Source of the DNA: an uncultured bacterium
Lineage (GTDB): Bacteria; Fibrobacterota; Chitinivibrionia; Chitinivibrionales; JANQEN01
Assembly (NCBI GenBank): GCA_965372145.1
Contig: CBDVBE010000001.1
Span: 1 to 55,106 of the forward strand
DNA length: 55,106 nt
Direction of reading: 5' to 3'
Shown: one piece after another, positions 2,284-42,070 of the stretch
Numbering within the stretch: position 1 is the first letter of the stretch
How the letters are laid out: each line of letters begins with the position of its first letter
Notes under the pieces: generated by a model
The model's database searches: none
What the model was told of the DNA's origin: nothing
Seen by the model: the letters and a program-made list of their open reading frames with translations, nothing else
Position numbers and translations under genes: made by a program

Positions 2284-2286
2284 TAC

Positions 2287-3219: not shown

Positions 3220-3229
3220 GAGGTATGTC

Positions 3230-26111: not shown

Positions 26112-26894
26112 ATGAAAAAAGTAATTGACTGTAGAGGTGTTTTGCTTTTTGTCCTACTTGTTGTAATTGTATTTACAAGCTGTGCAAAACGGCAGACACA
26201 ACCGGCGCCAACGAGCGACAAGGTAGAAGTTGACAAGGAAGAATTTCTCCAGTATCTTGACAAAGATTTAAAACCGCAGGGAGAGGAAGCTGATAAAGCC
26301 CTTTTCCAAACGGAGACTATCATGCCGGGAGATCGTATCTCATTATACATTTATGAGAAACTGCCGGTGAGTCAGGAAAAACGGGAGGAAATAAAGCGTG
26401 TGGATGAAGAGGGTAATATTTTTATTCTGCCGATTGGCGAAATGAAACTTTCCGGACTGCGTATTTCAGAAGCCGAACAATTGATAGAAGACAAGTTTTC
26501 CGATTTTGTTGTTTCGCCCCACTGTGAAGTACAAATTATTGAAAAACTGTATGAACCACGCATTTATGTTTTCGGTGAAGTAGAAAAATCCGGTTCAGCT
26601 GCATTCAAGCGGGGTGACAGGCTGCTTGATGCAATTTCCTCTGCACAGGGATGCAAAGATAATGCCTATAAACGATCAATCAAAGTAGTGCGTTTTGAAA
26701 ATAATAAAATCAGTATTTATACCATAAATCTCAAAGAGATCCTGGAAGGCGGGAATCTGTATAAGAATATTCCATTGCGGGATCGGGATGTTGTTTTTGT
26801 TCCGCGGAGATTCCTCACAGGATTTAAGGAAGTCTTCGGGGCACTCGCACAGGTAATGCCATGGTATGTACTCGTACGGACGATAATTCCGTAA
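26112..26894 (+). CDS. Wza-like polysaccharide export lipoprotein (Poly_export + SLBB)
   Basis: 260-aa ORF. Signal peptide with a lipobox-like VFTSC, then the PGDRISLYIYE and YVFGEVEKSG motifs. Confidence 0.8.
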   Translation: MKKVIDCRGVLLFVLLVVIVFTSCAKRQTQPAPTSDKVEVDKEEFLQYLDKDLKPQGEEADKALFQTETIMPGDRISLYIYEKLPVSQEKREEIKRVDEEGNIFILPIGEMKLSGLRISEAEQLIEDKFSDFVVSPHCEVQIIEKLYEPRIYVFGEVEKSGSAAFKRGDRLLDAISSAQGCKDNAYKRSIKVVRFENNKISIYTINLKEILEGGNLYKNIPLRDRDVVFVPRRFLTGFKEVFGALAQVMPWYVLVRTIIP

Positions 26895-29204: not shown

Positions 29205-29225
29205 TTTTTCTCACATGCTGGTACT

Positions 29226-30656
29226 ATGACACACTATTCTTTACAAGATAATAAGAAAGCTATTCTGCTCCTTCTCTTCCCTGTTTTCCTTCTTGCCGGA
29301 GTTGTACTGTTATATCAGATTGTCGTCCAGGAAAAAAGCATTATATTATTTTGTATATTAGCTGTTCTCTTTTTTATCATCTGTTTTTCAAGTATACGGA
29401 TTTCGCTTATTCTGCTTATTTTTTCAATGCTTCTTTCCCCGGAAATAGCAGTTGCGCAAACTACGGCACGGGATGTCACCATCCGTTTTGATGATCTGCT
29501 CCTTTCTATTATGACAATCAGTTGGCTCGCACGGATGGCAATATTTTCAGATCTGGGAATTATTCTTAAGAATCCTATTAATAGACCTGTTATTCTATTT
29601 TCTTCCCTCGCGATAAGCTCAACAATATTGGGGACTATGTATGGGTCTGTGAGCCCCTTAGCAGGAACTTTCTTTGTGCTTAAGATGATTGAGTACTTTT
29701 TCCTTTTTTTTATTGTGGTTAATTATGTGCATAAAGAGGAAGAGATACATCAGTTGCTGAGTTCGCTGTTGATTGTTTTTGGTATTATCTGCTTGTATGG
29801 TATATTCCAGGTTATTACCGGTGGAGATATCAGCGCTCCGTTTGAAGGGGAGCATGCGGAAAGGAATACTCTGGGGGGCTATCTGGTGTTAATGGCATCG
29901 GTTGCAGGCGGTGTTATGCTTTATACGGAATCGAAACTTGAAAAAGTTCTGATAGCATCATTTCTTCCACTGTTTTTTATTGTTCTGCTTTTTTCGATTT
30001 CCAGAAGCGGCTGGGTTTCCGGAATTACTGCTTTAATAGTACTCTTCGTTTGTACAAAGGAGAAAGGAATCTTTTTTCTCATTATTCTTGTAGTCTTGCT
30101 GATATTTCCATTTGTCATGCCGGAAGTGGTACAAGATCGATTCGATTTTACCTTTTTCCAGAAATCCCAGTATAGCAGCCAGATTAGAATAGGTCCGATT
30201 TTATTAGACACCTCGACATCGGCAAGGATTTTCTCCTATAAGTTAGTACTCAATCGTTTCTTAAAACATCCGTTCCTGGGATATGGCATAACCGGATTTG
30301 GATTTATTGACGGGCAGTTTTTCAGGGTATTAATAGAAATGGGTATTATTGGTCTTACCTCTTTTCTATGGGTTCTGACCGGTGTACATGGAATAATACG
30401 AAGGGGTATGAAAACTGTCGGCTCACCAAGGCTTCGTGGTATGGCTGTCGGTTTTTATGCCGGTTTCTGGGCGATGATGATTCATGCTATGACGGCAAAC
30501 ACTTTTATTATTGTCCGTATTGCCGAGCCATTCTGGTGTTTAACAGGGCTTATTGTTGCCTATTCATATACGATGGCAAAAAGTAATTTAGTAGAGGAAG
30601 CGGAAGTAGAAATATCAGCAGAACAAGAGGAAAAAATCCAAAAAGGAGATAGGTGA
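29226..30656 (+). CDS. O-antigen ligase / Wzy-like polymerase family membrane protein
   Basis: 476-aa ORF with at least 10 TM segments and one larger loop (SRSGWVSG region), typical of the Wzy_C/O-antigen-ligase family. Confidence 0.7.
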   Translation: MTHYSLQDNKKAILLLLFPVFLLAGVVLLYQIVVQEKSIILFCILAVLFFIICFSSIRISLILLIFSMLLSPEIAVAQTTARDVTIRFDDLLLSIMTISWLARMAIFSDLGIILKNPINRPVILFSSLAISSTILGTMYGSVSPLAGTFFVLKMIEYFFLFFIVVNYVHKEEEIHQLLSSLLIVFGIICLYGIFQVITGGDISAPFEGEHAERNTLGGYLVLMASVAGGVMLYTESKLEKVLIASFLPLFFIVLLFSISRSGWVSGITALIVLFVCTKEKGIFFLIILVVLLIFPFVMPEVVQDRFDFTFFQKSQYSSQIRIGPILLDTSTSARIFSYKLVLNRFLKHPFLGYGITGFGFIDGQFFRVLIEMGIIGLTSFLWVLTGVHGIIRRGMKTVGSPRLRGMAVGFYAGFWAMMIHAMTANTFIIVRIAEPFWCLTGLIVAYSYTMAKSNLVEEAEVEISAEQEEKIQKGDR

Positions 30657-30973
30657 TGACGGTAAAGAAAAAATTAGTAGTGAAAACAGGTATGTGTAAT
30701 GGTATAGATTCTATCGGTATTGTAGGCCCGTTTGATTCGGTTGACGCGCAGATTGATGAGATTGCTGATACTATCATTAATCAGGGAAAAAAGAATATTG
30801 TCTTCGATTTCAGTGAAACAACCTATCTTACCAGCTCAGGTATAGCAGTGATCATTAAAGTCCTTAAGAAATGCCAGAAGGCGCAGGGTGCATTATATAT
30901 TGCTAATATTACGCAGGATATGTATGATCTGCTAAATTGTTCTTCGTTGAATAATTTTCTTCAGTATATTTGA
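30653..30973 (+). CDS. single-domain STAS protein (anti-sigma-factor-antagonist type)
   Basis: 106-aa ORF overlapping the upstream stop. IVFDFSETTYLTSSGIAVIIKVL contains the canonical (D/T)SSG phosphorylatable-serine loop. Confidence 0.75.
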   Translation: MMTVKKKLVVKTGMCNGIDSIGIVGPFDSVDAQIDEIADTIINQGKKNIVFDFSETTYLTSSGIAVIIKVLKKCQKAQGALYIANITQDMYDLLNCSSLNNFLQYI

Positions 30974-31255
30974 AGATTTAGTAAAATTCAACTATTTAAT
31001 TTAAACCCAACATTTTGTTAGGACTATAGCCTTCAGCTCTGCTGCACAAAAATATGCTATTCAACTTCTCATATATCTTTCATCCCTTTTTGAACTTTAA
31101 TTTACTCCAAACTCACAAACTTGCAAACTTATTCGTATGGCTTACCTGCAATCATTTAGTATTTTCTTTCCAGCATAAAACACAAAAAGTAATTTATAAG
31201 TAGACATTCCATACACTTCTAATAAACCTTTTGGGCTATACCGGAAAAGTACTGA

Positions 31256-31570
31256 ATGATTAGAAGCAATCTCATTGTTAAAAAGGGCATGTTTAATGGC
31301 ATAGATTCAATCGGTGTTGTTGGCCCGTTTGATCAGATGGACGGCCAGATTGAGATTCTCACTGATGAAATACTAAAGCAAGGTAAAAAGGATATCGTAT
31401 TTGATTTTAAGGAGACAATTTATATCACCAGTTCCGGTGTGGCTATGCTTGTTAAAGTTCTGAAAAAAGTGCACTGGGCAAAGGGAGCGTTATACATTTC
31501 CAATATTACTCAGGATATGTGGGCACTCCTTGCGAATTCCGCGTTGGATAGATTTTTAAAAGTTATTTAA
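31256..31570 (+). CDS. single-domain STAS protein, tandem paralog of 30653-30973
   Basis: 104-aa ORF. More than half its residues are identical by eye to the previous STAS protein. IVFDFKETIYITSSGVAMLVKVL. Confidence 0.75.
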   Translation: MIRSNLIVKKGMFNGIDSIGVVGPFDQMDGQIEILTDEILKQGKKDIVFDFKETIYITSSGVAMLVKVLKKVHWAKGALYISNITQDMWALLANSALDRFLKVI

Positions 31571-31721
31571 TATCTGTTCAAAATTGACTGTTTGGGAACC
31601 TTGCGCCCCCTAAATCCCCCGGAGGGGGACTTGTAAGGTGTTGATTTTATTATAACATTATTTCAACACAAGTCCCCCTCCGGAGGATTTTGGGGGCGCA
31701 GATGTCAATTCTGAACAGATA
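31571..31721. repeat. nested-hairpin palindromic element, family A copy 1
   Basis: Outer IR TATCTGTTCAAAATTGAC (31571-31588) / GTCAATTCTGAACAGATA (31704-31721). Inner arms GCGCCCCCTAAATCCCCCGGAGGGGGACTTG (31603-31633) and their reverse complement (31669-31699). It starts 1 nt after a stop codon. Confidence 0.85.
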
Positions 31722-31803
31722 CTATTTAGATGATATCTCCCGGTTTTTTCACGTTTTATAATCCAAAGAAATAATAGTTTCGACCGTCACAACGCTTTAG
31801 CAG

Positions 31804-32934
31804 CTATTTCCCGGCAGTATAGGTGTCTATAAGAAGATTATAGAGCGAGTGCGCATACATTGCACTGGTAAATTGTGCAGCCCGTTCCAGCCCCCGTTTT
31901 GAAATTGTTGAAGCCAACTCCGGTGATGTAAGTACTGACAGGATTTTCTCAGCGATCTGCCGATGATCGCGCGGATCAACAACTATACCGGCATCCCCGA
32001 CAATTTCTTTAAGCGATGTTTCAACCGATGATACCACCGGTGTACCGCATGCCATAGCTTCCAACGGTGGATAGCCGAATCCTTCATATAACGATAGCAT
32101 AACAAAGACCTTCGCTGACGAGTAAAGAACGACTTGATCTTTGATGGGGATCTTTCCGGTAACGATGATATTATTTCTGGCAGTGGATGACTGTATGCAC
32201 CTTTCAATTTTATTGGCAGATATTATCGGTGCTCCCGCAAGTACGAGTGTAATATCTGGTACAGTTTCTACAACACTTTCAAAGGCTTTTATTAACACGT
32301 CGACATTCTTATGCGGCTTAAAATTACCGGTATACAGTATGAAATCTGAATTGATACCGTATCTTTGCTTAACTGCTTTTACCAAGTCAGGGGCACGAAC
32401 CGGTTTGTAGATATCATCCAGTCCAAGGTAGATCACTTTTATCTTGTCAGGTTTAACGCCATAAAACCGTATGATTTCAGTCTTTGAATACTCTGAACAG
32501 GTAAATATGACGTCTGCTCTGTGTGCCATGAGCCTGCCGAATGTTTTCAAATAGAGGAGTGCCAATGGGCTTAAATCCTTTTTATAGTATTCGCAGTATA
32601 CATACATTAAATCAAACAGCGCACTGACACAAATACCGGGGCAGAAGACCGGGATCTTATAATAGGGAGAATAGAAGATATCTATAGTGTTATTTTTAAT
32701 TAAACTGCGTAGAACAAATTGATCCCATAACCATGTATGTTCCTCTTTTTTTACACAGTTGCTGATGCGTGAAGAGAAACGGACACACTCTGCGGGAACC
32801 GGTTTGCTTGAAAAAAGAATGCAGGTGTTGTCATCATGCTGGTCTGCAAAATAATCAAGAAATACTGCAAGTGCACGGCCCATACCCGTTGTTATACCAT
32901 CCTGAATCTCCCGTGCGTCAATTCCTATAATCAT
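31804..32934 (-). CDS. family 4 (GT-B) glycosyltransferase
   Basis: 376-aa ORF. EGFGYPPLEAMACGTPVVSSVETSLKEIVGDAG motif. Confidence 0.85.
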   Translation of the reverse strand: MIIGIDAREIQDGITTGMGRALAVFLDYFADQHDDNTCILFSSKPVPAECVRFSSRISNCVKKEEHTWLWDQFVLRSLIKNNTIDIFYSPYYKIPVFCPGICVSALFDLMYVYCEYYKKDLSPLALLYLKTFGRLMAHRADVIFTCSEYSKTEIIRFYGVKPDKIKVIYLGLDDIYKPVRAPDLVKAVKQRYGINSDFILYTGNFKPHKNVDVLIKAFESVVETVPDITLVLAGAPIISANKIERCIQSSTARNNIIVTGKIPIKDQVVLYSSAKVFVMLSLYEGFGYPPLEAMACGTPVVSSVETSLKEIVGDAGIVVDPRDHRQIAEKILSVLTSPELASTISKRGLERAAQFTSAMYAHSLYNLLIDTYTAGK

Positions 32935-33120
32935 GGCGACTATTCCTGCTGAAGCAGTTTGTCGAACGTATTAGACATGTTCACTATGTTATTTCTCTTT
33001 ACAATTTCAGTATATATGTGTACTATTTATATACTACTATGATACAGATAATACGACTATAAAAAATATAGTGATTACACTTAAATAATAGTAACAATAA
33101 TTTTAATCAGTATATCGATA

Positions 33121-34191
33121 ATGGAAAACACAAAACAGGTTTTAATTGCTGAGAACGATAAAACAATTCGCACGGCATTAACCATGGTGCTGCAGGAGAT
33201 CGGGTTGAAAGTATTTGCAGTGGATAATGGTGTTAGTGCGATGGGAAATATTCGGACCAGAGAGATTAATTTGGTTATAACCAACCTGCTCCTTCCGCAG
33301 CTCAATGGTGTCGATCTTATAAAAAACACACAGACTACTCATCCCCATACGGAGATTGTTGTTCTTTCGGATGTCGTTAATGATGCGGTATATGAACTCA
33401 TGCGAAAACTTGGTGTATTCCGCCTGTTTCAGATTCCGTTTAAGATTGACGATATTAAAGATGCAGTCCTCCGGGGCCTTGCGAGTAACCGGGAAGAACG
33501 TCTTACTACCCAAATTCCGTTACTGCATGAATTCATGCAGGACTTTATACGGATAGTCGTGGCACATCCGGATATTGATGTGTTTGAAAAGATATTGGGA
33601 ATCGGATTAGCAGCAGGATGGACGGTTGATCATGCTCAAAATGCCGAAGAGTTTACGAAGTTACTTACCATTGGTTTCTATGACATACTTGTTTCTTCGG
33701 AATCGTTTAGTAAAGCATTAAACCGGAATGATCTTCACACGCTGACCCAAAGCTCATGCAAACCGGTACTCTTTATCCTTTCAGATGTACCGAACTCATC
33801 AAAGGTCAGGAATGTTGCCTTTGCTTCATCTGTTTTATATCTGCCTGAGGGATTTGAAAAAAATACTTTTATAAAAGTGTTGCAGGAGGCTCTCCCGGAG
33901 TATCTTGATAAGAAGGAGAAATATTCCCTGGAACAGGAGTTGAAGCAGTGCAGAAAGGTGACCCCGGGATCCTTTGTGTTCTGTTTGAAGAGACGCTTGA
34001 GGAAAGCGATGGGGCCTGTATTTATTCTCTACTGTATTATGATACTTCTTGCGGGGCTTGCAGGATTCTGGATCAGTACCATGATGGGAAGAGGGTATAA
34101 AGAAAAAGAAGAGACACAGCAGAGTGATATGCTTCATAAGATGGAGCAGTATCAGGAAATGCAGAAGTTGTATGAACAGCGGGGAAAATAG
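33121..34191 (+). CDS. membrane-anchored tandem pseudo-receiver protein (REC-like, phospho-acceptor Asp replaced by Asn)
   Basis: 356-aa ORF. The N-terminal REC fold (VLIAENDKTIR...INLVITNLLLPQLNG...VVLSD...IPFK) has Asn where the acceptor Asp should be. A second degenerate REC-like region follows, then one TM helix (VFILYCIMILLAGLAGFWI) and a charged tail. Confidence 0.65.
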   Translation: MENTKQVLIAENDKTIRTALTMVLQEIGLKVFAVDNGVSAMGNIRTREINLVITNLLLPQLNGVDLIKNTQTTHPHTEIVVLSDVVNDAVYELMRKLGVFRLFQIPFKIDDIKDAVLRGLASNREERLTTQIPLLHEFMQDFIRIVVAHPDIDVFEKILGIGLAAGWTVDHAQNAEEFTKLLTIGFYDILVSSESFSKALNRNDLHTLTQSSCKPVLFILSDVPNSSKVRNVAFASSVLYLPEGFEKNTFIKVLQEALPEYLDKKEKYSLEQELKQCRKVTPGSFVFCLKRRLRKAMGPVFILYCIMILLAGLAGFWISTMMGRGYKEKEETQQSDMLHKMEQYQEMQKLYEQRGK

Positions 34192-34216
34192 GGATATAGT
34201 ATCCTACATTTAGCAG

Positions 34217-34286
34217 TTCACCGCAGAGATCACAGAGAAGAAATAATTTTAAATTTAAGATTTTTCTCTGCGTGCTTTGCGGTGAA
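34217..34286. repeat. inverted repeat / probable bidirectional terminator between convergent genes
   Basis: TTCACCGCAGAGATCACAGAGAA (34217-34239) and TTCTCTGCGTGCTTTGCGGTGAA (34264-34286) are imperfect reverse complements, followed by TTTT. Confidence 0.6.
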
Positions 34287-34383
34287 TTTTAGTTGAGTTT
34301 TTAGGATTATTCAATAGGACACAATGTTATAGCATCAACCGGGAACCCTTTAACCCGGAACCTGTGAACGGTTACGTTTTATC

Positions 34384-34716
34384 TTATGAGTTTATCAGGT
34401 CATCCATCGTGGGAAATATTTCAATCACGCTATCAAGGTCCAGTACATTGAATGTAGACAATATATCTTCATTTGGTTGAACTAATACCAGTTTCCCCTC
34501 TTTATCTTTAATCAATTCAAAACATTGCATGATAACCCTGATAGCATTTGAGAAGAGGTATGATTTATCTGAAAAGGAGAAGGCAATCCGGGTCTCGTTT
34601 TGCTGGAGCGCCTGTTCCACTACAGTGACGAGTTCTCCTATGTCGGTATAGATTCCAATGTGATCTTTAACCGAAATTATGCGATAGCCGTTTTGATAGG
34701 ATGAATCAATATTCAT
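34384..34716 (-). CDS. STAS-like small protein (degenerate serine loop), paralog a
   Basis: 110-aa ORF. About four-fifths identical by eye to 35506-35832. IAFSFSDKSYLFSNAIRVIM sits where STAS proteins carry the SSG loop. Confidence 0.6.
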   Translation of the reverse strand: MNIDSSYQNGYRIISVKDHIGIYTDIGELVTVVEQALQQNETRIAFSFSDKSYLFSNAIRVIMQCFELIKDKEGKLVLVQPNEDILSTFNVLDLDSVIEIFPTMDDLINS

Positions 34717-34815
34717 AGGTTCCCCGTCGTTAATTACACCTTGCTATATATTCCCGGATTCTTTTTAACAAAATAGTAACTTTAATTTTAATAATCAAAT
34801 CTATAGTGTTTATTT

Positions 34816-35091
34816 TTAAAATGGAGAGGGGAACTTACCAACTATAGAAATCTTATAGGTAAGGCCCAAGCGGGACGAGGCAATAGGCATTGCATAGTCA
34901 ACACCAAACCACGAATAACGCATTCCCAGTCCAACCGAGAAATCAAAATCCCGATAATCCCGTTCTGCTATATCAAGGCCTGTTGCCATGCCGCCGCGGA
35001 TCATAACAATACCAAATAGTTTGTAGAAAAATTCAATATAATATAATCTGATGATTAAAAAGGTGTACCGGAAACCGTTACTGTACTTCAA
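34816..35091 (-). pseudogene. truncated duplicate of the 3' end of the PorV/PorQ-like gene
   Basis: The C-terminal ~62 aa of this 91-aa ORF (GMATGLDIAERDYRDFDFSVGLGMRYSWFGVDYAMPIASSRLGLTYKISIVGKFPSPF) nearly repeat the C-terminus of 35926-36882. Nucleotide similarity stops near 35025. Confidence 0.7.
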
Positions 35092-35121
35092 TTACAAGTT
35101 AAAGGCATGATGGAATTTTCA

Positions 35122-35460
35122 TTAACCTTCTGCATTCAGAAGATCTTCTTTTAAAGGAAAGACCTTAATCACACTGTCAAGACCCAGCATCTTCATCAAT
35201 GATTGAATGTCTTCGTTCGGTTGAATTATTGCAAGGGAGCCGCCCTCTTTCTGTATCAAATCAAAACAGGACATGATTGACCTGATTGAATCAGAAAAGA
35301 GAAATGACTCTTTAGTAAAGGAAAAAGCTATATGAGGCTCGTGCTGCTGAAGAGCACCTTTTACGACGTCTATAAGCTCATCAAGATTAGTGTCGGCTAT
35401 TATTCGATCTTTAATCTCAAAAATACGAAAACCGTTTTGAAATGAGGAATCAATATTCAT
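35122..35460 (-). CDS. STAS-like small protein (degenerate serine loop), paralog b
   Basis: 112-aa ORF sharing MNIDSS.QNG.RI...ALQQ.E..IAFSF...S.LFS..IR.IM.CF.LI with paralogs a and c. Confidence 0.6.
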   Translation of the reverse strand: MNIDSSFQNGFRIFEIKDRIIADTNLDELIDVVKGALQQHEPHIAFSFTKESFLFSDSIRSIMSCFDLIQKEGGSLAIIQPNEDIQSLMKMLGLDSVIKVFPLKEDLLNAEG

Positions 35461-35505
35461 AACATTTTTAATTAATCTATTAGTGACAGGTGATAGTATA
35501 AAATC

Positions 35506-35832
35506 CTATTCTATTTCATCCAGGGAAGGAAACACTTTAATAATCTTATCCAGATCCAGCACATTGAATGTAGACAATATATCGTCATTTGGTCGCACCA
35601 ACCCCAGTGTACCCTCGTTATCTTTTATCAATTCAAAACATTGCATGATTACCCTGATGGAATTTGAAAAAAGGTATGATTTGTCGGTAAAGGAGAAGGC
35701 AATCCAGGTTTCATTTTGCTGGAGTGCCTGTTCCACTATAGTGACGAGTTCTCCTATGTCAGTATACACGCCAATGTGATCTTTAACCGAGATTACACGA
35801 TACCCGTTATGATAGGATGAATCAATATTCAT
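35506..35832 (-). CDS. STAS-like small protein (degenerate serine loop), paralog c
   Basis: 108-aa ORF, 93 nt downstream of the PorV/PorQ-like gene on the same strand. Confidence 0.6.
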   Translation of the reverse strand: MNIDSSYHNGYRVISVKDHIGVYTDIGELVTIVEQALQQNETWIAFSFTDKSYLFSNSIRVIMQCFELIKDNEGTLGLVRPNDDILSTFNVLDLDKIIKVFPSLDEIE

Positions 35833-35925
35833 AGGTCCCCAATCGTTATTTTCCTCTCTATATTCGTCCCTGGATACTTTTTAACAAAATAGTACCTTGA
35901 ATTGAAATAATCAAATGTACGAGAT

Positions 35926-36882
35926 TTAAAAAGGCGAAGGGAACTTGCCAATTACCGAGATTTTATGGGTAAGTCCCAGGCGGGCGGAGTTAATAGGCAT
36001 TGCATAATCAACACCGAACCACGAGTAACGCATTCCCAGTCCAACCGAGAAATCAAAATCGCGGTAATCCCGTTCTGCTATATCGAGGCTTGTAGCCATC
36101 CCAGCGCGGATCGAAAGAATACCAAACAGTTTGTATTGTAGCCCGAGTGAGACATCTATCGGCTGCCGCAGGGTTTTTGCTACGTCAAGCTCTGCTATCA
36201 ATGTCGTATCAAGGAATCTGCCGGCTATACCGAGTTGTGCTGTGGGCAGTACCTGATCCCGATGGTCTGTTGTCCACCAGAGGTATGATCCGATGTTCCG
36301 GCCGCTTATGCCGATACATAACTGCTCTATCGGCCAGTACGTTGCACCGATATCAAATCCACATCCGTGACCCTGTTCACCTGCCATCTGTTCATGAATG
36401 TACCGTGCGGTGATACCCAGCGAAACAGGCCATTGCAACCGGCCGGCTACACTGAGGGCTACTGTATTAGCACTATAGTCAAAATCCTCGGTTGGATTTC
36501 CCAGGCTGTCACGGCCTTCAATGTCCCCGACGCCGTATTTCATAAGGGAAAGGCCGGATATAACAAAATCACCAAGCGGCATTGCAGCATCGACTCCCTG
36601 ATGTTTTCTATCCCATGTCATGAATGAATAGGTTGCGATAACCGGAACAATATCAACGACTGCATCGAGAATTGCCGGATTATATTGAATACCCGCAAAT
36701 TCCTCCTGCCACGCGGCAGTTGCACCGGCAAGAGCCGCACTGTGCGCATGGCGCGGCAGCTTGAGGTATTCCGCTGCACCGCGAGCATAGCCGGAGGATG
36801 CGAAATCTGATTCCCCGGCCTGGAGTGCTGTGATTGTTAGGAATAGAAGGAGTATGTGGTTTAGTTGTTTCATTTTTATCAA
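35926..36882 (-). CDS. PorV/PorQ-family-like outer-membrane beta-barrel protein (T9SS-associated)
   Basis: 318-aa ORF. Signal peptide, then LKLPRHAHSAALAGATAAWQEEFAGIQYNPAIL, which resembles the N-terminal signature (araa.GgA...NPA.L) of PorV/PorQ-type proteins. Alternating beta-strand pattern and a C-terminal aromatic residue (SPF). Confidence 0.55.
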   Translation of the reverse strand: MIKMKQLNHILLLFLTITALQAGESDFASSGYARGAAEYLKLPRHAHSAALAGATAAWQEEFAGIQYNPAILDAVVDIVPVIATYSFMTWDRKHQGVDAAMPLGDFVISGLSLMKYGVGDIEGRDSLGNPTEDFDYSANTVALSVAGRLQWPVSLGITARYIHEQMAGEQGHGCGFDIGATYWPIEQLCIGISGRNIGSYLWWTTDHRDQVLPTAQLGIAGRFLDTTLIAELDVAKTLRQPIDVSLGLQYKLFGILSIRAGMATSLDIAERDYRDFDFSVGLGMRYSWFGVDYAMPINSARLGLTHKISVIGKFPSPF

Positions 36883-36890
36883 TCCTGTTT

Positions 36891-36985
36891 GCGCCCCCTA
36901 AATCCCCCGAAGGGGGACTTTTAGGGAATTGGTTTTATAATAATCCTTTTCCATTTAAGTCCCCCTTCGGGGGATTTAGGGGGCG
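36891..36985. repeat. nested-hairpin palindromic element, family A copy 2
   Basis: GCGCCCCCTAAATCCCCCGAAGGGGGACTT (36891-36920) and AAGTCCCCCTTCGGGGGATTTAGGGGGCG (36957-36985). The arms are nearly identical to those at 31603-31699. It lies between two genes of one minus-strand operon. Confidence 0.85.
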
Positions 36986-36999
36986 TAAGATAGTGGTGC

Positions 37000-38607
37000 T
37001 CACCGCAACACCGCAATCTTCAGCACTTTCTTATCATCTCCGCCATCATCGTATGTAACCTTAACCAGCGCAAAGTACACACCGTTAGCGACATCTTTTA
37101 TGTTCCAGTCATATATATATTTTTCTTCCGCGTTCAGCTTTTTCGAGAACCGGAGGACCGGTTTTTCAGAAGCATTGTATATAGTTACCTTTACCGTAGC
37201 ACTTTTGGTGACATACAGTTGAATGTGGGAGACCTTGCCCCGCGCAGGGTTGGGATAGCAATAGGTGCTCTTTTTAAAGCTTACCGGCTCAGGTCCTCCC
37301 GGAACATACGTTACAATAGAGCCGTTATACGTTGCGAAATAGAGACGGCCGTTTGATGCCGTCGGTGATGAAAAGATATCACTGTCCAGGCTGTCTTCCC
37401 AGACCTTGGTACCTTTTATTGTATGAAATCCATATACTTTTCCTTCACCCCAGCCGAAGAACACTACCGTGTCAACAACCAGCGGGCTTGAGCAGAAGCC
37501 AAGCTTCGCGTAATTGCGCAGCTCACTGAAATACCACTGTTCAGCACCGGTTTTTTTGTTAAAAGCCGTTATGGTAAATCGTGGTTTAGGATCACCATAC
37601 TCTTTATGAATCACAAATACATTCGAATCCCCAATTGCCGGTGATGATGTTGCATTACCGCCAAGAGGTACAAATATCTGCGTGTTTTCTCTTGTTAACG
37701 GCGCAAGCTGATCGAGTACTGCATTATCCATACGGTAATATTTCCTGAATCCCCGCAGCATCTTTCTGCGGACTTTTGGACTGTGCACAATAAACTGCCG
37801 GAAGATATTTCTATCAACAGCAGTGGCTGCAGATTCTATACTGCTTATATTCTTCCATAACAGTGAACCGTTGGTCAGTGAGAGCGCATAGATATTCTTA
37901 TCATACCCGCCGGGCGAGAAGTAGGTAATGCTACCGGAAATGGCGGGAGATGATAGATACACGCCGCCCTGAGTCTGGTAACTCCATATCGGTGTGCCGG
38001 TGTGGGCATCCAGAGCAACAAGATTGCCGCTGTTTTCACCATAACAGAGAATAGAATCAGAAAATGCAGCGGATGAATAGACCGGCTGGCTGTTGGATTT
38101 AAACCAGACATACCGGTTGGTATTTAAATTATAAATGTCAATCTGCCTGTTTCTTCCGCCTCTGCCAAACGCGACAAGGCTGTCGTAAATCAACGGTGAT
38201 GAGCACTGGGTGTTGTTATTTACAATTACTGCTAACGAGTCACCTGTTACGGAATTCAGAATATAGAGGTTGCCGTCACGGGAGCCGGTATAGAGTGTCC
38301 CCGCACAATAGGCTGGCGTCGCGTCAATCCAGCCCCGGGTTTTCCTGGACCAGATAAGTGTACCATTATAGAAAGCGTATATCGTGCTGTCCCGTGCACC
38401 GATATACAGGGTGTCATTTACTACTATGGGTGAAGAGGTTGCCGGACCCTTAATAGTGGTTGTAGTGAGTTTTTTTAATGGCAATGAAAGTGAAGATGCA
38501 GCGCGCCCGGTGCGTGCATTATCCTCGCGGAAGGTATGCCCGTATGGGACACCCAGGCTCAGGAGCACTATCAGGATGGGTGTGTTTTTAAGGAACAGGG
38601 TATGCAT
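37000..38607 (-). CDS. PQQ-like (BamB-type) beta-propeller repeat protein with T9SS C-terminal sorting domain
   Basis: The ORF track opens at 38655. The start is more likely ATG 38607 (AGGAAAGG upstream, signal peptide MHTLFLKNTPILIVLLSLG). Repeated G.LY.....G.L.A(L/I)D motifs. The last ~85 aa (YCYPNPARG...IYNASEKPV...GVYFALVKV...KIAVLR) match the T9SS type A CTD pattern. Confidence 0.8.
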   Translation of the reverse strand: MHTLFLKNTPILIVLLSLGVPYGHTFREDNARTGRAASSLSLPLKKLTTTTIKGPATSSPIVVNDTLYIGARDSTIYAFYNGTLIWSRKTRGWIDATPAYCAGTLYTGSRDGNLYILNSVTGDSLAVIVNNNTQCSSPLIYDSLVAFGRGGRNRQIDIYNLNTNRYVWFKSNSQPVYSSAAFSDSILCYGENSGNLVALDAHTGTPIWSYQTQGGVYLSSPAISGSITYFSPGGYDKNIYALSLTNGSLLWKNISSIESAATAVDRNIFRQFIVHSPKVRRKMLRGFRKYYRMDNAVLDQLAPLTRENTQIFVPLGGNATSSPAIGDSNVFVIHKEYGDPKPRFTITAFNKKTGAEQWYFSELRNYAKLGFCSSPLVVDTVVFFGWGEGKVYGFHTIKGTKVWEDSLDSDIFSSPTASNGRLYFATYNGSIVTYVPGGPEPVSFKKSTYCYPNPARGKVSHIQLYVTKSATVKVTIYNASEKPVLRFSKKLNAEEKYIYDWNIKDVANGVYFALVKVTYDDGGDDKKVLKIAVLR

Positions 38608-41503
38608 ACACCTTTCCTTCATTTGAGGTAAAAACAACAACACCGTTGGCAACATCTACTGTAGGTGAATTTGGTATTGTCCCGCCGGCTGTTTTCGGCC
38701 AACCCGTTTTGGCGGCCATTGTTGCAACGTCAACTGCATATACTTCGCCATCATCATCACCAAAGAATGCGGTGCCGGCGGATGTTACGACAGGCATGGA
38801 ATTGATGGTATTTGCAGGAGTAGAATATGTTCCGGCGACGGACCCGTCGCTGGAGTTCATTTTTTTCAGATTGGTCCCGGCACCGACATAGATATAAACG
38901 CCCTGCCTGAATGCTGCACTGGTTGTCGTAGCAAGTAAATCATCAGAGGTCCAGGCGGTACCCATAGTTGACAAATTCACTGCATAGACATAATTATCAT
39001 TTGATGCAACGTACATTATGTCAGACCATGCGTTAAGTGATATATTCGCATTAGGTGCATGGGCATTACTGCTCTGGTACGTATTATCAACAGCATACTT
39101 TTCTACATTGCCGGTCACGGGAAAATAGACATAAGAGGCCTCTACAATTGCAGAGGAAGTGGCAATCGGTGAATTGCTTTCAATAGTCCATGCGATACCA
39201 CCATCACTGGTTGATACTTTATAGGAATCGCCATTGAAAGTCAGGTACAGATAATCCCCGTCAGTTGACAGGATAGGATCAGACATATCAGTTGCTGTTC
39301 CCCAATCCACATAGTCGAATTTTGATTCGGCTGAAGAGCCATTATCCCAGACTGCGCCGATTTGAGCTTTGTGATTGGTGTAGTATATGGCATATTTCCC
39401 CTGAGCAGAGTGATAGTAAAGACAAAGATTCGTTACAAAACCGCCTTGTGCTCCACTGGCATCGTATGACCATTTTTCCGTGCCGTTGTCAATATCATAA
39501 CTGTAAATAGTTTGCTGGGCGCCCACGTATACAACTCCGTCGCCGATAACCGGTGATGTACAGGGACTGATTACACCGGAGATCCATAACGCACTACCGG
39601 TGGTAAATGAATAATCAGAAGAGACGGTTCCGGTGTTGCCGTAACTGTCACGTGCATTTACCCGCCAGGAGTATGTGCTGCCGGCCGCAAGTTCCGACGT
39701 CTGCCAGGTGGCTCCGCTCTGCCAGCCGCTGTTTGCAATGGCTGTGACAAACGGGTCGGCATCGTCTAATTCAATATAGTATTCTATTGTGGATATATCG
39801 CTTGCAGTGCTGCTGGTCAGCACGGGCTGAATGGAGGTGTTGGTTGCCGCATCTGACGGGGAACTGCAGCCGTAGCCGGTCGGGTCCGCATTGTCAAGAA
39901 CAAATGCCGTGGAGGTCGTTGCGTTGCCGGTATTAGCCGAGGCATCTTTTGGCGTGATACGGATATAGAACGTTGCATCTTCAGTGGTTGAGACGTCAGT
40001 CTCATTACTGCCGTTCTGGCTGTCCCATACAAAGGTGACATTGCTCTGATTGGTACTGATAGTGTGAATCTGCCTGGTGGCAGTTCCTCCACTGACACCG
40101 GTATTATCGATTGTTCCGACAGAGGCGCTGCTGATATACGCCTGGTAGTATGTAGAATTGTCAGCCGAGTATTCTATAAGAAGTTCACAATTCTCAGGTG
40201 CCTGAGGATCGCTGAGGTCATACTGAACCGTCACAAGGCCGGTGCCGTTGGTAGCATGGGTGACATTGTCAATAACAACGCTGGGCTTAACATTCGAAAC
40301 GGTAAAATTATAGATTGAGGAATAGGCGGTTTCATTGCCATAGAAATCTTTAACTTTAACACGCCAGTAGTACGTCTGACTTACACTCAGGCCGGTTGCA
40401 ACCCAGTCGGGATCGGCGCTCTGCCAGCCGCTGTTTGCAATGGGGCTGCTGCAATCCGAATCAGTATCGATTTCCAGGTAGTAAGAAATTGTGCTGGCAT
40501 CGCTGGCTGTCGCTGAAGTAAGCGTTACATCAGGGCCGCCCGGGGAAGAGCCGATAGTCGGTGTACTGCAGGCCCAACCGGTAGGGTCCTTGGTATCGAT
40601 AACAAAATTGTTCGATGAAAATTTTAATGTGTCGGTAAGCGGGATTGCGTTTACCGCAATAATCTGCATGTTATAATTTGAGACTTCCGTTGGAGTGGCA
40701 AGCTGGGTTGCGGCGTCCCAGATAAGCTGGCGGTTTGTTCCCGGATTGTCAGCATTAACCGATCCTTCACCGGTAAGAGTGGCATCGGTACATGCAACAA
40801 AGGCGGAACCGTTCCAGTACTCTGCCTTTATCGTTACGTCCGAATAGTCATCGTCAGAGATCCGGTAATTCATCTCAACGTCCCCGGACCCGTCTGTCCG
40901 CTGAAAGCAGGTGGCGCTGGTAAAGGATTCGGCCGTATTGGTATCAACCAGTGTTGGCGGACCCGTATAGGTTACAATAACCTCCAGATGATCCACATCG
41001 ATCTGGCTCCAATCCACTCCACCGGAAGCAACCGCTTTACAGCCACATCGAACATCATCAATATCAGTCCACGTCCATGCACCTCCGCCTGGTTTTTCTG
41101 TAAAGTCAGCTGAATAATAGGCGTATGAGGTGTTTAATTCATGAACTGTGCCATCCAGGAGAGGGTCATAAATCAATTCTATTCTAACCTGAATGCCTTC
41201 GCTGGTTCCGGAAAGATTAATATCGGCCTTCGCATATAAGCGGACAGTAATCTTGGCGATGGTTCCAACGCCGCCTACATGGTTTTCAATCGGCACATCG
41301 AGTAGATCACTTTTTGTTGTTGTATAGGCAGCAGTACCGCCTGTTTCAGAACAATCAGTACCGACATCGGTGCCGCCGGTGTTAAAGTCGTTATCCGGAC
41401 CTTCTCCGGTTCCCGCATCCAGGGTCATTGTAGATGCAAAGGGAGATAATACGGCAAGTAAAGAGATGAGAGTGATTGTAATAACGAATTTTTTCATATT
41501 CAT
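38588..41503 (-). CDS. large secreted protein: two tandem (Ig/FN3-like + FN3-like) module pairs plus C-terminal PQQ-like beta-propeller
   Basis: 971-aa ORF. Signal peptide MKKFVITITLISLLAVLSPFAS. An internal ~100-aa repeat (D.(K/A)DPTG..CS.P...(L/I)E(I/L)D...IANSGWQS...Y.WRV...D.YGN) occurs twice. The C-terminal third has propeller-type repeats. No T9SS CTD is present. It overlaps the next gene by 20 nt. Confidence 0.8.
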   Translation of the reverse strand: MNMKKFVITITLISLLAVLSPFASTMTLDAGTGEGPDNDFNTGGTDVGTDCSETGGTAAYTTTKSDLLDVPIENHVGGVGTIAKITVRLYAKADINLSGTSEGIQVRIELIYDPLLDGTVHELNTSYAYYSADFTEKPGGGAWTWTDIDDVRCGCKAVASGGVDWSQIDVDHLEVIVTYTGPPTLVDTNTAESFTSATCFQRTDGSGDVEMNYRISDDDYSDVTIKAEYWNGSAFVACTDATLTGEGSVNADNPGTNRQLIWDAATQLATPTEVSNYNMQIIAVNAIPLTDTLKFSSNNFVIDTKDPTGWACSTPTIGSSPGGPDVTLTSATASDASTISYYLEIDTDSDCSSPIANSGWQSADPDWVATGLSVSQTYYWRVKVKDFYGNETAYSSIYNFTVSNVKPSVVIDNVTHATNGTGLVTVQYDLSDPQAPENCELLIEYSADNSTYYQAYISSASVGTIDNTGVSGGTATRQIHTISTNQSNVTFVWDSQNGSNETDVSTTEDATFYIRITPKDASANTGNATTSTAFVLDNADPTGYGCSSPSDAATNTSIQPVLTSSTASDISTIEYYIELDDADPFVTAIANSGWQSGATWQTSELAAGSTYSWRVNARDSYGNTGTVSSDYSFTTGSALWISGVISPCTSPVIGDGVVYVGAQQTIYSYDIDNGTEKWSYDASGAQGGFVTNLCLYYHSAQGKYAIYYTNHKAQIGAVWDNGSSAESKFDYVDWGTATDMSDPILSTDGDYLYLTFNGDSYKVSTSDGGIAWTIESNSPIATSSAIVEASYVYFPVTGNVEKYAVDNTYQSSNAHAPNANISLNAWSDIMYVASNDNYVYAVNLSTMGTAWTSDDLLATTTSAAFRQGVYIYVGAGTNLKKMNSSDGSVAGTYSTPANTINSMPVVTSAGTAFFGDDDGEVYAVDVATMAAKTGWPKTAGGTIPNSPTVDVANGVVVFTSNEGKVYAYPVP

Positions 41504-41519
41504 TAATTAATATATTGTG

Positions 41520-41675
41520 TTACGATGTTGACGGCAGCCTGAAGCAGGCATGCTGCTTATGCGGTCCAGTACGGCATTTTCCGCAGGCTAGTGCACGGCG
41601 TTCGAATATCTCCTCAGATTCGACATCAGGAGGAGAGTAGACCGGTTTTTTAACGGGTTTTTCGTTTTTTTTCAT
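41520..41675 (-). CDS. candidate 51-aa Cys/His-containing small protein (hypothetical)
   Basis: Hand translation gives MKKNEKPVKKPVYSPPDVESEEIFERRALACGKCRTGPHKQHACFRLPSTS. It is too short for the ORF track. The stretch is GC-rich in an AT-rich spacer and ends 16 nt before the start of the 971-aa gene on the same strand. Confidence 0.3.
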   Translation of the reverse strand: MKKNEKPVKKPVYSPPDVESEEIFERRALACGKCRTGPHKQHACFRLPSTS

Positions 41676-41834
41676 AAATAGTCTTACGTAACGTTAATGA
41701 AATGAAGTAGTTACAAGAAATATATATAGTGCTATATATCTATAATACTTAATTATATACCCATTTGCGGGGATTGTCTAGTAAAAACAAAAAGTCATTG
41801 GTATAGAATTTTATTAGTAAAAGAGTATTTATTT

Positions 41835-42070
41835 GGAGGAGGAAGCCGCAAGCGCATCTGCCACTGGCAGATGTGCTCCCTAAGCGGAGCTAAGTCTCGT
41901 TTCGAATAAAAGACTGTAACATTCCACCTGTTTTCATTATTCATTCAACCAGTCGGAATTAACAGCCGTTAATTCGTTACTCAACTGGATCTCCGCTTAC
42001 CCCCTCGCAATTTATATGTCTGGTCGTTTGGCCAGACACAAACCTGTAGTGGCTCAACATGTTGAACCCT
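41835..42070 (+). other. candidate structured RNA or regulatory region in a 750-bp spacer
   Basis: Several helices are visible.
- Hairpin 41852-41876 with a G-U pair possible only in plus-strand RNA.
- Long-range TAAGCGGAG (41881-41889) / CTCCGCTTA (41991-41999) enclosing two hairpins: 41893-41915, and 41949-41988 with an inner perfect 8-bp GAATTAAC/GTTAATTC stem.
- Hairpin 42018-42037.
- A 12-bp perfect palindrome TCAACATGTTGA (42054-42065). Confidence 0.25.

Follow-up and report, generated by a model that had tools for sequence, protein, structure and literature searches.

The 55,106-nt contig analysed here (the window) carries five STAS genes, which we interpret, with slightly better than even confidence, as two unrelated layers within an exopolysaccharide (EPS) locus. 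In this interpretation a plus-strand pair (STASp1 and STASp2) would act as EPS switches resembling SypA of Vibrio, and a minus-strand trio (STASm1-3) would be an expansion specific to this contig. The same interpretation, held with the same confidence, takes the source of the window for a Chitinispirillia-like member of the Fibrobacterota and the window itself for a Wzx/Wzy-dependent EPS locus of the XrtA-associated type. A deacetylase scores above the TIGR03006 equivalog cut-off (302 vs 276 bits), and the Wza, Wzc, Wzy and AsnB proteins best match XrtA-associated NCBIfam models, at scores below the cut-offs of those models.

The five STAS open reading frames described in an earlier note on this DNA lie where it had placed them, and all exceed 22.6 bits, the gathering score of Pfam PF01740 (STASp1 39.5, STASp2 29.1, STASm3 35.6, STASm2 25.4, STASm1 28.2). 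Its division into two families also holds: STASp1 and STASp2 are 62% identical, STASm1 shares 81% identity with STASm3 and 51% with STASm2, and identity between the families is about 20%, with homology still apparent at the profile level (hhalign probability 97%). Both AlphaFold2 models (pLDDT 85.2 for the minus family and 81.7 for the plus family) show the order beta-beta-alpha-beta-alpha-beta-alpha, and their best PDB matches in Foldseek are TM1081, SpoIIAA, RsbV and RsfB (TM 0.73-0.79). The STAS fold is thus confirmed for both families, including the minus-strand paralogs. We looked for hydrophobic segments, signal peptides and transmembrane (TM) segments in the STAS proteins, and none were predicted. 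The clustering of these genes is the product of gene duplication and not of chance. That the duplication is recent is true of STASm1 and STASm3 (dS ~0.5) but not of the remaining pairs, as the split between STASp1 and STASp2 predates the divergence of the lineage (dS ~1.8) and dS between STASm1 and STASm2 is saturated.

In Chitinispirillia-like Fibrobacterota, the plus-strand STAS genes accompany the Wza-Wzc-Wzy_C operon as a conserved accessory. The first gene of this conserved Wza-Wzc-Wzy-STAS unit encodes a Wza-like polysaccharide export protein (26112..26894, plus strand; Pfam Poly_export and SLBB_2; best NCBIfam match pepcterm_export, under cut-off), which is syntenic in loci L005 and L029. 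It is followed on the same strand by a Wzc-type chain-length determinant fused to a bacterial tyrosine (BY) autokinase P-loop domain (26952..29204; Pfam Wzz, GNVR and AAA_31; TIGR01007 159.8 bits vs a cut-off of 108; 53% identical to the L029 counterpart) and by a Wzy_C/O-antigen-ligase-like polytopic membrane protein (29226..30656; Pfam Wzy_C 41.1 vs 31.7 bits; best NCBIfam match PEP_O_lig_1, under cut-off). STASp1 (30656..30973, plus strand; PF01740), a single-domain STAS protein whose AlphaFold2 model matches SpoIIAA with a TM of 0.79, starts at an ATG at 30656 that overlaps the TGA of the Wzy gene, with a AAAGGAGA motif 7 nt upstream. The open reading frame tool gives a GTG start at 30653 for this gene. 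STASp2 (31256..31570, plus strand; PF01740), the second conserved paralog, comes after a 282-nt spacer, so that the proposed translational coupling of both genes to Wzy is borne out by the stop/start overlap of STASp1 but does not extend to STASp2. Both proteins keep the T-S-S-G loop reported for them (Ser60 in STASp1).

Adjacency of Wzy_C and a downstream STAS gene recurs in seven other loci (L005, L006, L007, L018, L029, L030 and, in part, L009), reaching down to 53% Wzc identity and 46% identity of the outer-membrane protein described below. The stop/start overlap is found in the window and three relatives (L005, L006 and L007), in which the gene coordinates share one base. Orthologs of STASp1 occupy the first position in L005, L006, L007 and L018 (60-67% identity; the L029 STAS protein is 46% identical), and those of STASp2 the second position in L005, L006, L007 and on one short contig (L019). 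Each tandem position makes up an orthologous group of its own, T59, S60 and G62 are invariant, and dN/dS between STASp1 and STASp2 is 0.16. The suggestion that STAS proteins are linked to envelope polysaccharide export is therefore strongly supported for the plus-strand family by this conserved adjacency. All conserved loci belong to one fairly narrow lineage, so that common descent rather than selection may account for part of the synteny.

Such an arrangement has a precedent. SypA/RbdA is a single-domain STAS regulator encoded in the syp polysaccharide locus of Vibrio (PMC4517449), much as STASp lies in the Wza-Wzc-Wzy_C operon, and the syp versions of V. vulnificus and V. parahaemolyticus are without the kinase/phosphatase gene sypE (PMC4517449), just as such a gene is missing locally in the window. 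SypA is the closest analogue, and its own target is still not known (PMC4517449); no NCBIfam model specific to SypA picks up the STASp proteins. STAS control has also been published for a polysaccharide glycosyltransferase (PMC13555669) and, through BtrV, for type III secretion (PMC8256260). With STAS regulators already described in an EPS locus and in secretion, the "undescribed use" of STAS proteins put forward in the earlier note was an overstatement. By analogy, the plus-strand pair is best seen as a variant of the SypA type of polysaccharide regulator, and not as a new secretion adaptor. The stop/start overlap would keep production of STASp1 in line with that of the Wzy-like membrane protein, and both STASp proteins would work post-translationally as cytoplasmic STAS switches at the cytoplasmic side of the polymerisation/export machinery, as SypA might. 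They may target the Wzy-like protein, the autokinase domain of Wzc or a glycosyltransferase. Phosphorylation of the invariant Ser60 could control their activity, with the kinase and phosphatase presumably encoded elsewhere in the genome.

A Pfam scan of every open reading frame of at least 100 aa in the window found no HATPase_c, HATPase_c_2, SpoIIE/PP2C or Sigma70 domain, in agreement with the earlier observation that kinase, phosphatase and sigma partners are absent from it. Because the contig is only 55 kb long and constitutes the whole record, this absence says little about the genome; a kinase or phosphatase, should there be one, must have its gene off the contig. That leaves room for classical partner-switching in trans, in which all five proteins would be anti-sigma-factor antagonists served by an RsbW/SpoIIAB-like kinase, a PP2C phosphatase and a sigma factor encoded elsewhere, with a transcriptional output such as EPS or motility genes. 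The serine equivalent to Ser58 of SpoIIAA is invariant in 5/5 window proteins, and in the structure comparison SpoIIAA and RsbV, each bound to its kinase, come out on top. The nearest relatives of the minus-strand trio also have a fliA-like sigma-70-family gene at a distance of about 1.3 kb and a REC-HisKA-HATPase_c protein beside them. However, the strict place of STASp after Wzy_C and the overlap, which the window shares with L005-L007, favour a partner in the assembly machinery over one in a distant sigma module. No kinase, phosphatase or sigma gene turned up in the related EPS/OMP loci annotated with Pfam, and SypA, the closest analogue, acts on a target that is still not known (PMC4517449). 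We regard this alternative as rather unlikely. Phosphorylation of the STAS proteins is something that we purely infer, and the invariant serine, which caps the N-terminus of helix alpha-2, could have a structural role.

Were phosphorylation not involved, STASp could instead be an accessory subunit that binds and tunes a P-loop ATPase of the locus, in the way that the STAS protein MlaB does with MlaF. The locus holds two P-loop proteins of the MinD/ParA fold, the Wzc autokinase domain and a ParA-like protein at 1040-1957; the window has neither kinase nor phosphatase, STASp would be co-produced with the Wzc-Wzy genes, and MlaB of the MlaFEDB complex is among the significant fold matches (e.g. 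6zy3_B, E = 5.5e-3). SpoIIAA and RsbV are nevertheless much better structural matches than MlaB, and the invariant T-S-x-G loop is the signature of a phosphorylated antagonist; MlaB-type STAS proteins are not known to need this loop. We consider such a role improbable.

The minus strand carries a different set of envelope genes, in which the PorV/PorQ-like protein and its propeller neighbours are as they had been described. The outer-membrane beta-barrel protein (OMP; 35926..36882) belongs to the PorV/PorQ family (NF033709, 95.3 vs 90 bits). Assignment as the PorQ or PorV equivalog was rejected (59.9 vs 220 and 39.9 vs 250 bits, respectively), and the protein represents a distinct subfamily, with about 50 homologs found, the named ones from Chitinispirillia. 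Next to it, a 551-aa PQQ-like/BamB-like beta-propeller (37000..38655, minus strand; Pfam PQQ_2 and Por_Secre_tail) ends in a type-A C-terminal sorting domain (CTD) of type IX secretion (T9SS; PF18962 29.6 vs 27 bits, TIGR04183 33.1 vs 23 bits), and a CTD-propeller adjoins the OMP gene in all related loci whose contig extends far enough. A large secreted Ig-like/propeller protein is encoded beside the 551-aa one (38588..41503, minus strand; Pfam PQQ_2 and Ig_Rha78A_N), with an N-terminal hydrophobic signal-like segment, no detected CTD, and counterparts in L006 and L007.

The minus-strand trio had been proposed to be coupled to this operon, and on that basis the STAS proteins, above all the trio, might be dedicated T9SS adaptors or regulators of the CTD-propeller acting via the PorV-like protein. 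STASm1 (35506..35832, minus strand; PF01740; pLDDT 85.2; TM ~0.73 to TM1081 and RsfB) starts 93 nt downstream of the OMP gene in the same orientation, with no terminator-like site predicted between them. STASm2 (35122..35460, minus strand; PF01740) is the divergent paralog, and STASm3 (34384..34716, minus strand; PF01740) arose with STASm1 by segmental duplication (85% nucleotide identity, dN/dS 0.2). The duplicated unit includes the 3' end of the OMP gene, left as a truncated remnant of a second PorV/PorQ-like gene at 34816..35025 (minus strand; direct repeat D2, 85% identical to 35925-36135) that has no match in a Pfam scan. The remnant's protein identity is 87% over 69 codons and its dN/dS 0.13, which implies that there were once two copies of the OMP-STASm pair and that they stayed functional for a while, mild evidence against a chance pairing. 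The linkage of EPS and OMP/propeller genes in many relatives and the BtrV precedent for STAS control of another secretion system (PMC8256260) would also suit an adaptor.

Comparison with relatives speaks against it. None of 13 related OMP loci (L001-L009 and L027-L030), including that of the 82%-identical L008 ortholog, has a co-oriented STAS gene downstream of the OMP gene, so that the proposed coupling is not conserved, and no STASm homolog was found in the related loci, the trio being unique to this contig. A search of 5.8 billion proteins returned only the window's own paralogs as close relatives, and 1.84 billion cluster representatives yielded none. The nearest relatives are proteins 39-41% identical from Chitinivibrionales MAGs; the two with readable context (L016 and L017; 34-41% identical) adjoin a flagellar flhF/flhG/fliA-like sigma cluster of other Fibrobacterota, and OMP or T9SS neighbours were never found among the distant relatives, whose contexts are unrelated. 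Without a signal peptide or TM segment the STASm proteins are most likely cytoplasmic and cannot touch the outer-membrane barrel, which makes a direct adaptor there topologically implausible. Our literature search found no paper linking STAS domains to T9SS. A dedicated T9SS role thus seems doubtful at best. The minus-strand loop, earlier called degenerate, keeps a serine at the acceptor position in all three proteins, and this column is Ser or Thr in 38/38 aligned members of the wider family. In the interpretation that we favour, STASm1-3 would belong to another STAS subfamily, which has expanded on this contig only and landed downstream of the OMP gene; they retain the acceptor serine and are under purifying selection. 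The trio would most likely add further cytoplasmic inputs to partner-switching, or serve as decoys for the kinase, encoded in trans, that would also act on STASp, and is unlikely to consist of T9SS adaptors.

Between the two STAS sets lies, as described earlier, a membrane-anchored pseudo-receiver (33121..34191, plus strand; Pfam Response_reg 56.9 bits) with an N-terminal REC domain and a C-terminal TM segment at about aa 293-323; a domain search of aa 126-356 found nothing. Relative to Spo0F it carries D11->N, D54->N and K104->I and so lacks the phospho-acceptor Asp, and in L009 the ortholog (42% identity) likewise has N and I at these sites and is anchored by a TM segment. The same interval encodes a GT4-family glycosyltransferase (31804..32934, minus strand; Pfam Glycos_transf_1 and Glyco_transf_4), orthologs of which adjoin the OMP gene in L005 (71% identity) and L009 (61%). 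A palindromic repeat of about 95 nt occurs between the convergent STASp2 and GT4 genes (copy A, 31600..31702) and, in an alignable copy B (36889..36991), between the propeller and OMP genes; a motif search gave 4 matches vs 0.04 expected, and copy B forms a 29-bp hairpin (-70.3 kcal/mol, z = -10.3).

Finally, a radical-SAM/SPASM maturase (44379..45413, minus strand; Pfam Radical_SAM and SPASM) is 53% identical to the OMP-adjacent maturase of L027 and L029, where a PqqD gene precedes it, and accompanies the OMP/propeller module in relatives. This module and the EPS genes occur together in L005, L006, L007, L009, L029 and L030, and the EPS genes and the PqqD-rSAM-PorV-like-CTD-propeller module are linked at the locus level even in distant relatives. 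In Porphyromonas, T9SS cargo is reported to be attached to A-LPS (PMC12704123). By comparison, the EPS and cargo modules may be linked in these Fibrobacterota because the polysaccharide and the T9SS-type cargo share one surface structure.

All five open reading frames that the earlier note had read as STAS proteins are present, and each scores above the gathering threshold of Pfam PF01740 (22.6 bits): on the plus strand STASp1 (30656-30973, with an alternative GTG start listed at 30653; 39.5 bits) and STASp2 (31256-31570; 29.1 bits), and on the minus strand STASm3 (34384-34716; 35.6 bits), STASm2 (35122-35460; 25.4 bits) and STASm1 (35506-35832; 28.2 bits). The NCBIfam model TIGR00377 aligns over residues 1-106, with a score below its cut-off. 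The plus-strand pair is 62% identical; on the minus strand, STASm1 shares 81% identity with STASm3 and 51% with STASm2. Identity across the two families is about 20%, and their profile-profile alignment has a probability of 97% with the acceptor serines in register. AlphaFold2 models of one member per family (mean pLDDT 85.2 for the minus family and 81.7 for the plus family) both display the order beta-beta-alpha-beta-alpha-beta-alpha, and their best Foldseek matches are TM1081, SpoIIAA, RsbV and RsfB (TM 0.73-0.79). Profile and structure comparisons thus confirm the STAS fold of the minus-strand proteins.

A serine at the position of SpoIIAA Ser58 is invariant in the five proteins of the window, and helix alpha-2 begins at this acceptor serine in both models. 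The T-S-x-G motif is invariant in the plus family (7 of 7 members), with T59, S60 and G62 fixed. The loop of the minus-strand trio had been described as degenerate, but the acceptor column holds Ser or Thr in all 38 aligned members of that family, so at the decisive position the loop has not degenerated. On every defining feature tested, the five proteins are members of the STAS family. Since none of them contains a hydrophobic segment that could act as a signal peptide or transmembrane segment, their sequences make a cytoplasmic location most likely.

The plus-strand pair follows genes for Wza (plus strand, start at 26112), a Wzc-type tyrosine autokinase (plus strand, start at 26952) and a Wzy_C/O-antigen-ligase-like protein (plus strand, start at 29226), the last of which directly precedes STASp1. 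The ATG of STASp1 overlaps the TGA of the Wzy gene (…GTGATGA…), with a AAAGGAGA motif 7 nt upstream, while a spacer of 282 nt precedes STASp2. Translational coupling to the Wzy gene, which had been proposed for both STAS genes, therefore holds for STASp1 and does not extend to STASp2.

This arrangement recurs in other genomes. In three related loci (L005, L006 from the MAG GCA_030619215.1, and L007, with an outer-membrane protein (OMP) 65-69% identical to that of the window), the genes run Wza-Wzc-Wzy_C-STAS-STAS, one base is shared by the Wzy gene and the STAS gene next to it, and the Wza-to-STAS unit is convergent with genes for a big protein, a propeller with a type IX secretion (T9SS) C-terminal sorting domain (CTD) and the OMP. 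In L018, a Wzy gene (77% identical) is followed by a STAS gene (64%). The more distant loci L029 and L030, whose OMP and Wzc are only 46% and 53% identical to those of the window, have the single co-directional order Wza-Wzc-Wzy_C-STAS-GT4-GT4-WbqC-DegT-PqqD-rSAM/SPASM-OMP-big protein-CTD propeller; their STAS protein is a member of the STASp family (46% identical) with a T-S-P-G loop. The Wza-Wzc-Wzy_C-STAS arrangement is thus found in the window and in L005, L006, L007, L018, L029 and L030. A further locus, L009, has one STASp gene, at the contig edge and adjoining a pseudo-receiver gene. A search of metagenomes with the STASp alignment returned nine loci, with true family members only in L018 and L019, both short; the other matches were discarded as generic STAS proteins of about 31-34% identity without neighbours like those of the window. 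The conserved synteny, the separate orthologous groups formed by the two tandem positions, the fixed T59, S60 and G62 and a dN/dS of 0.16 between STASp1 and STASp2 indicate that the STASp proteins are a conserved component of the exopolysaccharide (EPS) assembly operon.

No classical partners accompany these proteins. A Pfam scan of all window ORFs of at least 100 aa gave no match to HATPase_c/HATPase_c_2, SpoIIE/PP2C or Sigma70, in agreement with the earlier note, which had recognised no kinase, phosphatase or sigma partner. A rescan at E values up to 5 of the unannotated ORFs (422-1021, 1969-2283, 20034-20858, 20906-21370, 52276-52914 and 52793-53386, the C-terminal part of the REC protein and a 1091-aa ORF) revealed no hidden kinase or phosphatase, and no GHKL kinase was found in the related EPS/OMP loci annotated with Pfam. 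As kinase, phosphatase and sigma features are all lacking locally, the STAS proteins cannot be shown to belong to a classical partner-switching module, judged within the 55,106-bp contig, all of which the window covers. They resemble the antagonists of the SpoIIAA/SpoIIAB and RsbV/RsbW/RsbU systems in fold and in the position of the acceptor serine. Unlike in those modules, no gene for a GHKL serine kinase/anti-sigma factor, a PP2C phosphatase or a sigma factor is present in the window or related loci, and the genomic context here is envelope polysaccharide assembly.

SypA, a STAS protein that turns on a polysaccharide locus, has been known for more than ten years. The STASp proteins share with SypA, RbdA and SypA-VP of Vibrio a length of about 105 aa and a place in an EPS locus with Wza-, Wzc- and glycosyltransferase-type genes; as with SypA, a single-domain STAS gene is conserved inside a polysaccharide biosynthesis and export locus and carries a conserved phosphorylatable serine at the start of helix alpha-2. 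This likeness is drawn from size, locus context and serine position, the NCBIfam matches of STASp being to generic antagonist models only. There are also differences. The phylum is Fibrobacterota, the STASp genes usually form a conserved tandem pair of two orthologous groups, and STAS closes the Wza-Wzc-Wzy unit, with STASp1 overlapping the Wzy stop, whereas sypA opens its locus. The window also lacks a SypE-like REC-kinase-PP2C protein, its sole REC protein being a membrane-anchored pseudo-receiver without enzymatic domain; cognate sypE is likewise missing in V. vulnificus and V. parahaemolyticus (PMC4517449). A literature search combining anti-sigma-factor antagonist, Wzy and exopolysaccharide returned only a paper on the Vibrionaceae syp-like locus. 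By analogy, the best-supported reading is that the STASp proteins would work most like SypA, whose target in polysaccharide production, like that of RbdA, is still unknown (PMC4517449).

A precedent for direct control of a polysaccharide glycosyltransferase by STAS is known from Anabaena (PMC13555669). In All4160 of Anabaena PCC 7120, the STAS domain is fused to the glycosyltransferase, and the HenR phosphatase and Alr3423 kinase have been identified. Control of the All4160 type is the mechanism that we infer for the STASp proteins, although these stand alone and have no such partners among the window genes.

The pseudo-receiver (33121-34191, plus strand; PF00072, 56.9 bits) conforms to its earlier description: the REC fold is present, the Asp/Lys quintet is lost and a C-terminal hydrophobic anchor is found. 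Relative to Spo0F, it carries D54->N at the phospho-acceptor, D11->N and K104->I. Its ortholog in L009 (42% identical) keeps these changes and the C-terminal anchor.

The minus-strand trio is far more restricted. A word-indexed homolog search with STASm1 over 5.8 billion proteins returned the window's own paralogs only. No related OMP locus has a STASm homolog, including L008, where the OMP is an 82% identical ortholog followed by a gene for a secreted repeat protein, and in none of these loci does a STAS gene follow the OMP gene downstream in the same orientation. The linkage of STASm to PorV-like genes, on which the earlier note had relied, is therefore a peculiarity of a single contig. An exhaustive profile search of 1.84 billion representatives did recover a wider STASm subfamily (135 representatives at E < 1e-10), whose closest members outside the window, at 39-41% identity, are from Chitinivibrionales MAGs; a locus search with a narrower alignment, limited to the closest relatives, yielded only two loci. 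Among the contexts read, no OMP or T9SS gene adjoins a STASm-family relative. In L010, L011 and L014, the relatives lie between cinA and an SNF2 helicase gene. L012 (GCA_964621685.1) has three tandem STAS genes at 5445-6662 and a fourth 3 kb off at 10001-10366, and the 10.7 kb of its contig that were read contain no gene for a kinase, a phosphatase or a sigma factor, so kinase-less STAS arrays are not unique to the window. In L016 (PLWQ01) and L017, relatives of 34-41% identity are convergent on an flhF-flhG-x-fliA-like sigma-x-HDOD cluster and divergent from a REC-HisKA-HATPase_c gene; a fliA-like sigma gene near the closest minus-family relatives is found in L017 only. This setting suggests an ancestral tie of the STASm subfamily to flagellar sigma-factor control. 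At 10001-15600 of L016/L017, the closest readable minus-family relatives end a cluster of flhA-size, flhF, flhG-like, fliA-like sigma and HDOD genes.

The history of the trio involves the neighbouring OMP gene. The final ~210 bp of that gene, the spacer behind it and a STASm gene together form a segment of about 640 bp, of which a second copy with 85% identity lies 1,110 bp further downstream. This copy retains, as a remnant, the truncated 3' end of a second OMP gene of the PorV/PorQ-like kind (34816-35025, minus strand; 85% nucleotide identity to 35925-36135), and the 91-aa ORF listed at 34816-35091 is probably not a real gene. With a dN/dS of 0.20 for STASm1/STASm3 and 0.13 for the OMP tail, the latter value indicates that the remnant spent most of its divergence within a working second OMP paralog. 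The OMP-STASm unit was thus present twice before a deletion took most of the second OMP. This duplication is the sole evidence favouring a functional pairing, and it is limited to this lineage. Multi-copy OMP/propeller arrays are found in the relatives L002, L004 and L027. In L008, an inverted partial copy of the OMP ortholog's own 5' end (1-222) precedes it; together with the 3' remnant of the window, it makes the OMP gene region a hotspot of rearrangement.

The OMP itself (35926-36882, minus strand) passes the PorV/PorQ family model NF033709 of NCBIfam (95.3 against a cut-off of 90 bits) and none of the equivalog models, with 59.9 against 220 for PorQ, 39.9 against 250 for PorV and 36 against 325 for PorV2. 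It resembles PorV and PorQ of the Bacteroidota T9SS in passing the family model and in always adjoining a type-A CTD protein, but its distance from the equivalog cut-offs makes it a distinct subfamily and, unlike them, it is embedded in an EPS locus with a PqqD/radical-SAM pair. Its homologs come from Chitinispirillia-type Fibrobacterota. Next to it on the minus strand are a PQQ/BamB-like propeller of 551 aa with a T9SS type-A CTD (37000-38655; PF18962, 29.6 against 27; TIGR04183, 33.1 against 23) and a large Ig/propeller protein of 971 aa recognised with Pfam (38588-41503), in which no CTD was detected.

Several further elements lie nearby. An 88-aa ORF with a signal-peptide-like N-terminus (42253-42519, plus strand) is followed 18 nt on by a 504-aa CBM96-MAM-Por_Secre_tail ORF (42538-44052, plus strand), in which the CBM96 match begins at profile position 44; the region 42253-44052 has the look of a single T9SS cargo gene interrupted by a stop codon or frameshift, or else of an error in the assembly. 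A palindromic element of about 95 nt occurs in two copies, one between the convergent STASp2 and GT4 genes (31600-31702) and one in the propeller-OMP intergenic region (36889-36991). Each copy forms a GC-rich hairpin of 29 bp with almost perfect pairing (-70 kcal/mol, z = -10), and the element looks like a REP/MITE-type repeat; its core has no exact match in the related loci, and no Rfam family matches within 29000-42500. A promoter and terminator scan gave counts near shuffle expectation, with a promoter consensus that does not cover this phylum.

Could the STAS proteins nevertheless serve type IX secretion, as the earlier note had proposed? Regulation of a protein secretion system by a STAS protein has a precedent in BtrV, as partner switching by BtrV/BtrW/BtrU controls type III secretion in Bordetella (PMC8256260), but that is another secretion system and comes with a full kinase and phosphatase set. 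No conserved STAS-T9SS linkage was found in the related loci, and our literature search found no paper that joins a STAS domain with type IX secretion. Having neither a signal peptide nor a transmembrane segment, the STAS proteins are topologically implausible as direct adaptors at the PorV-like barrel.

The conserved association of the cargo module is with the EPS locus. A large EPS locus of the Wzx/Wzy type takes up the rest of the window, with genes for a flippase, at least eight glycosyltransferases, methyltransferases, radical-SAM/SPASM enzymes, an AsnB-like amidotransferase, a WecA-like initiating transferase, a cNMP-binding protein and an HD_5 (HD-GYP-like) protein. Its deacetylase (4556-5392) passes the TIGR03006 equivalog cut-off of NCBIfam (302 against 276 bits), and the Wza, Wzc, Wzy and AsnB genes have XrtA-associated NCBIfam models as their best matches, below the cut-offs; no exosortase gene is present in the window. 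By these matches, NCBIfam places the EPS locus (1-31600) near the XrtA/PEP-CTERM-associated type. In the relatives L006 and L027-L030, the EPS locus travels with PqqD, a radical-SAM/SPASM protein, a PorV-like OMP, a large secreted protein and a CTD-propeller, an arrangement that may be a T9SS-based analogue of the "protein plus EPS" arrangement of exosortase systems.

The EPS locus opens with a five-gene module (422-3700, plus strand) encoding an unknown 199-aa protein, a ParA/MinD-like ATPase, an unknown 104-aa protein, a TPR protein and the cNMP-binding protein. The whole module adjoins a PorV-like OMP in L001 (1198-4892), while only the 199-aa-like protein and the ParA-like ATPase adjoin the propeller module in L027 (17328-18967) and L028. 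The 104-aa ORF beside the ATPase was considered as a sixth STAS protein and ruled out (hhalign probability 0.2%). The HD_5 protein (17971-19011, plus strand) and the cyclic-nucleotide-binding protein (3203-3700, plus strand), whose genes both lie within the EPS locus, would be alternative routes by which second messengers control EPS without involving the STAS proteins. An HD_5 gene also lies beside the propeller/OMP module in L002.

We propose that STASp1 and STASp2 would be small SypA-like switches acting post-translationally on the polysaccharide assembly machinery, with their activity set by phosphorylation of Ser60 through enzymes encoded elsewhere in the genome. Two features suggest the polymerase/co-polymerase complex as the putative target: the stop/start overlap with the Wzy gene, and a place immediately behind Wzc. 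STASm1-3 are most plausibly a lineage-specific expansion of a second antagonist subfamily that could feed extra inputs into, or titrate, the same trans-encoded kinase. At the level of the locus, the linkage of EPS genes with the PqqD-rSAM-OMP-propeller set is plausibly due to co-assembly at the surface. The glycan A-LPS depends on Wzy and WaaL. It carries attached T9SS cargo in Porphyromonas (PMC12704123).

A bolder reading, which we regard as unlikely, would make the STASp pair a gate that acts directly, and possibly without phosphorylation, on the Wzy/O-antigen-ligase-like enzyme, which would build the glycan that anchors the CTD-propeller shuttled by the dedicated PorV-like barrel. Such a cytoplasmic switch would co-ordinate matrix polysaccharide synthesis with surface protein display, in an XrtA/PEP-CTERM-like "protein plus EPS" system reconstructed from T9SS parts, to which the contig-specific STASm trio would contribute further inputs.

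In these loci, an independent lineage has fixed a STAS gene onto a Wzy-like gene (with overlap in the window and three related loci), after the Wzc autokinase. This fixation narrows the candidate targets of EPS-locus STAS regulators to the polymerase/co-polymerase complex, and makes the Wzy-STAS unit of Fibrobacterota a second system in which to seek the SypA-type target. The adjacency of STAS and PorV-like genes being a one-off, a STAS-T9SS adaptor model is not worth the effort. A separate lead is the conserved association, in Fibrobacterota, of an XrtA-type EPS locus with genes for a PorV-like barrel, a CTD-propeller and a PqqD/radical-SAM pair; it bears on the co-assembly of matrix polysaccharide and surface proteins outside the Bacteroidota.
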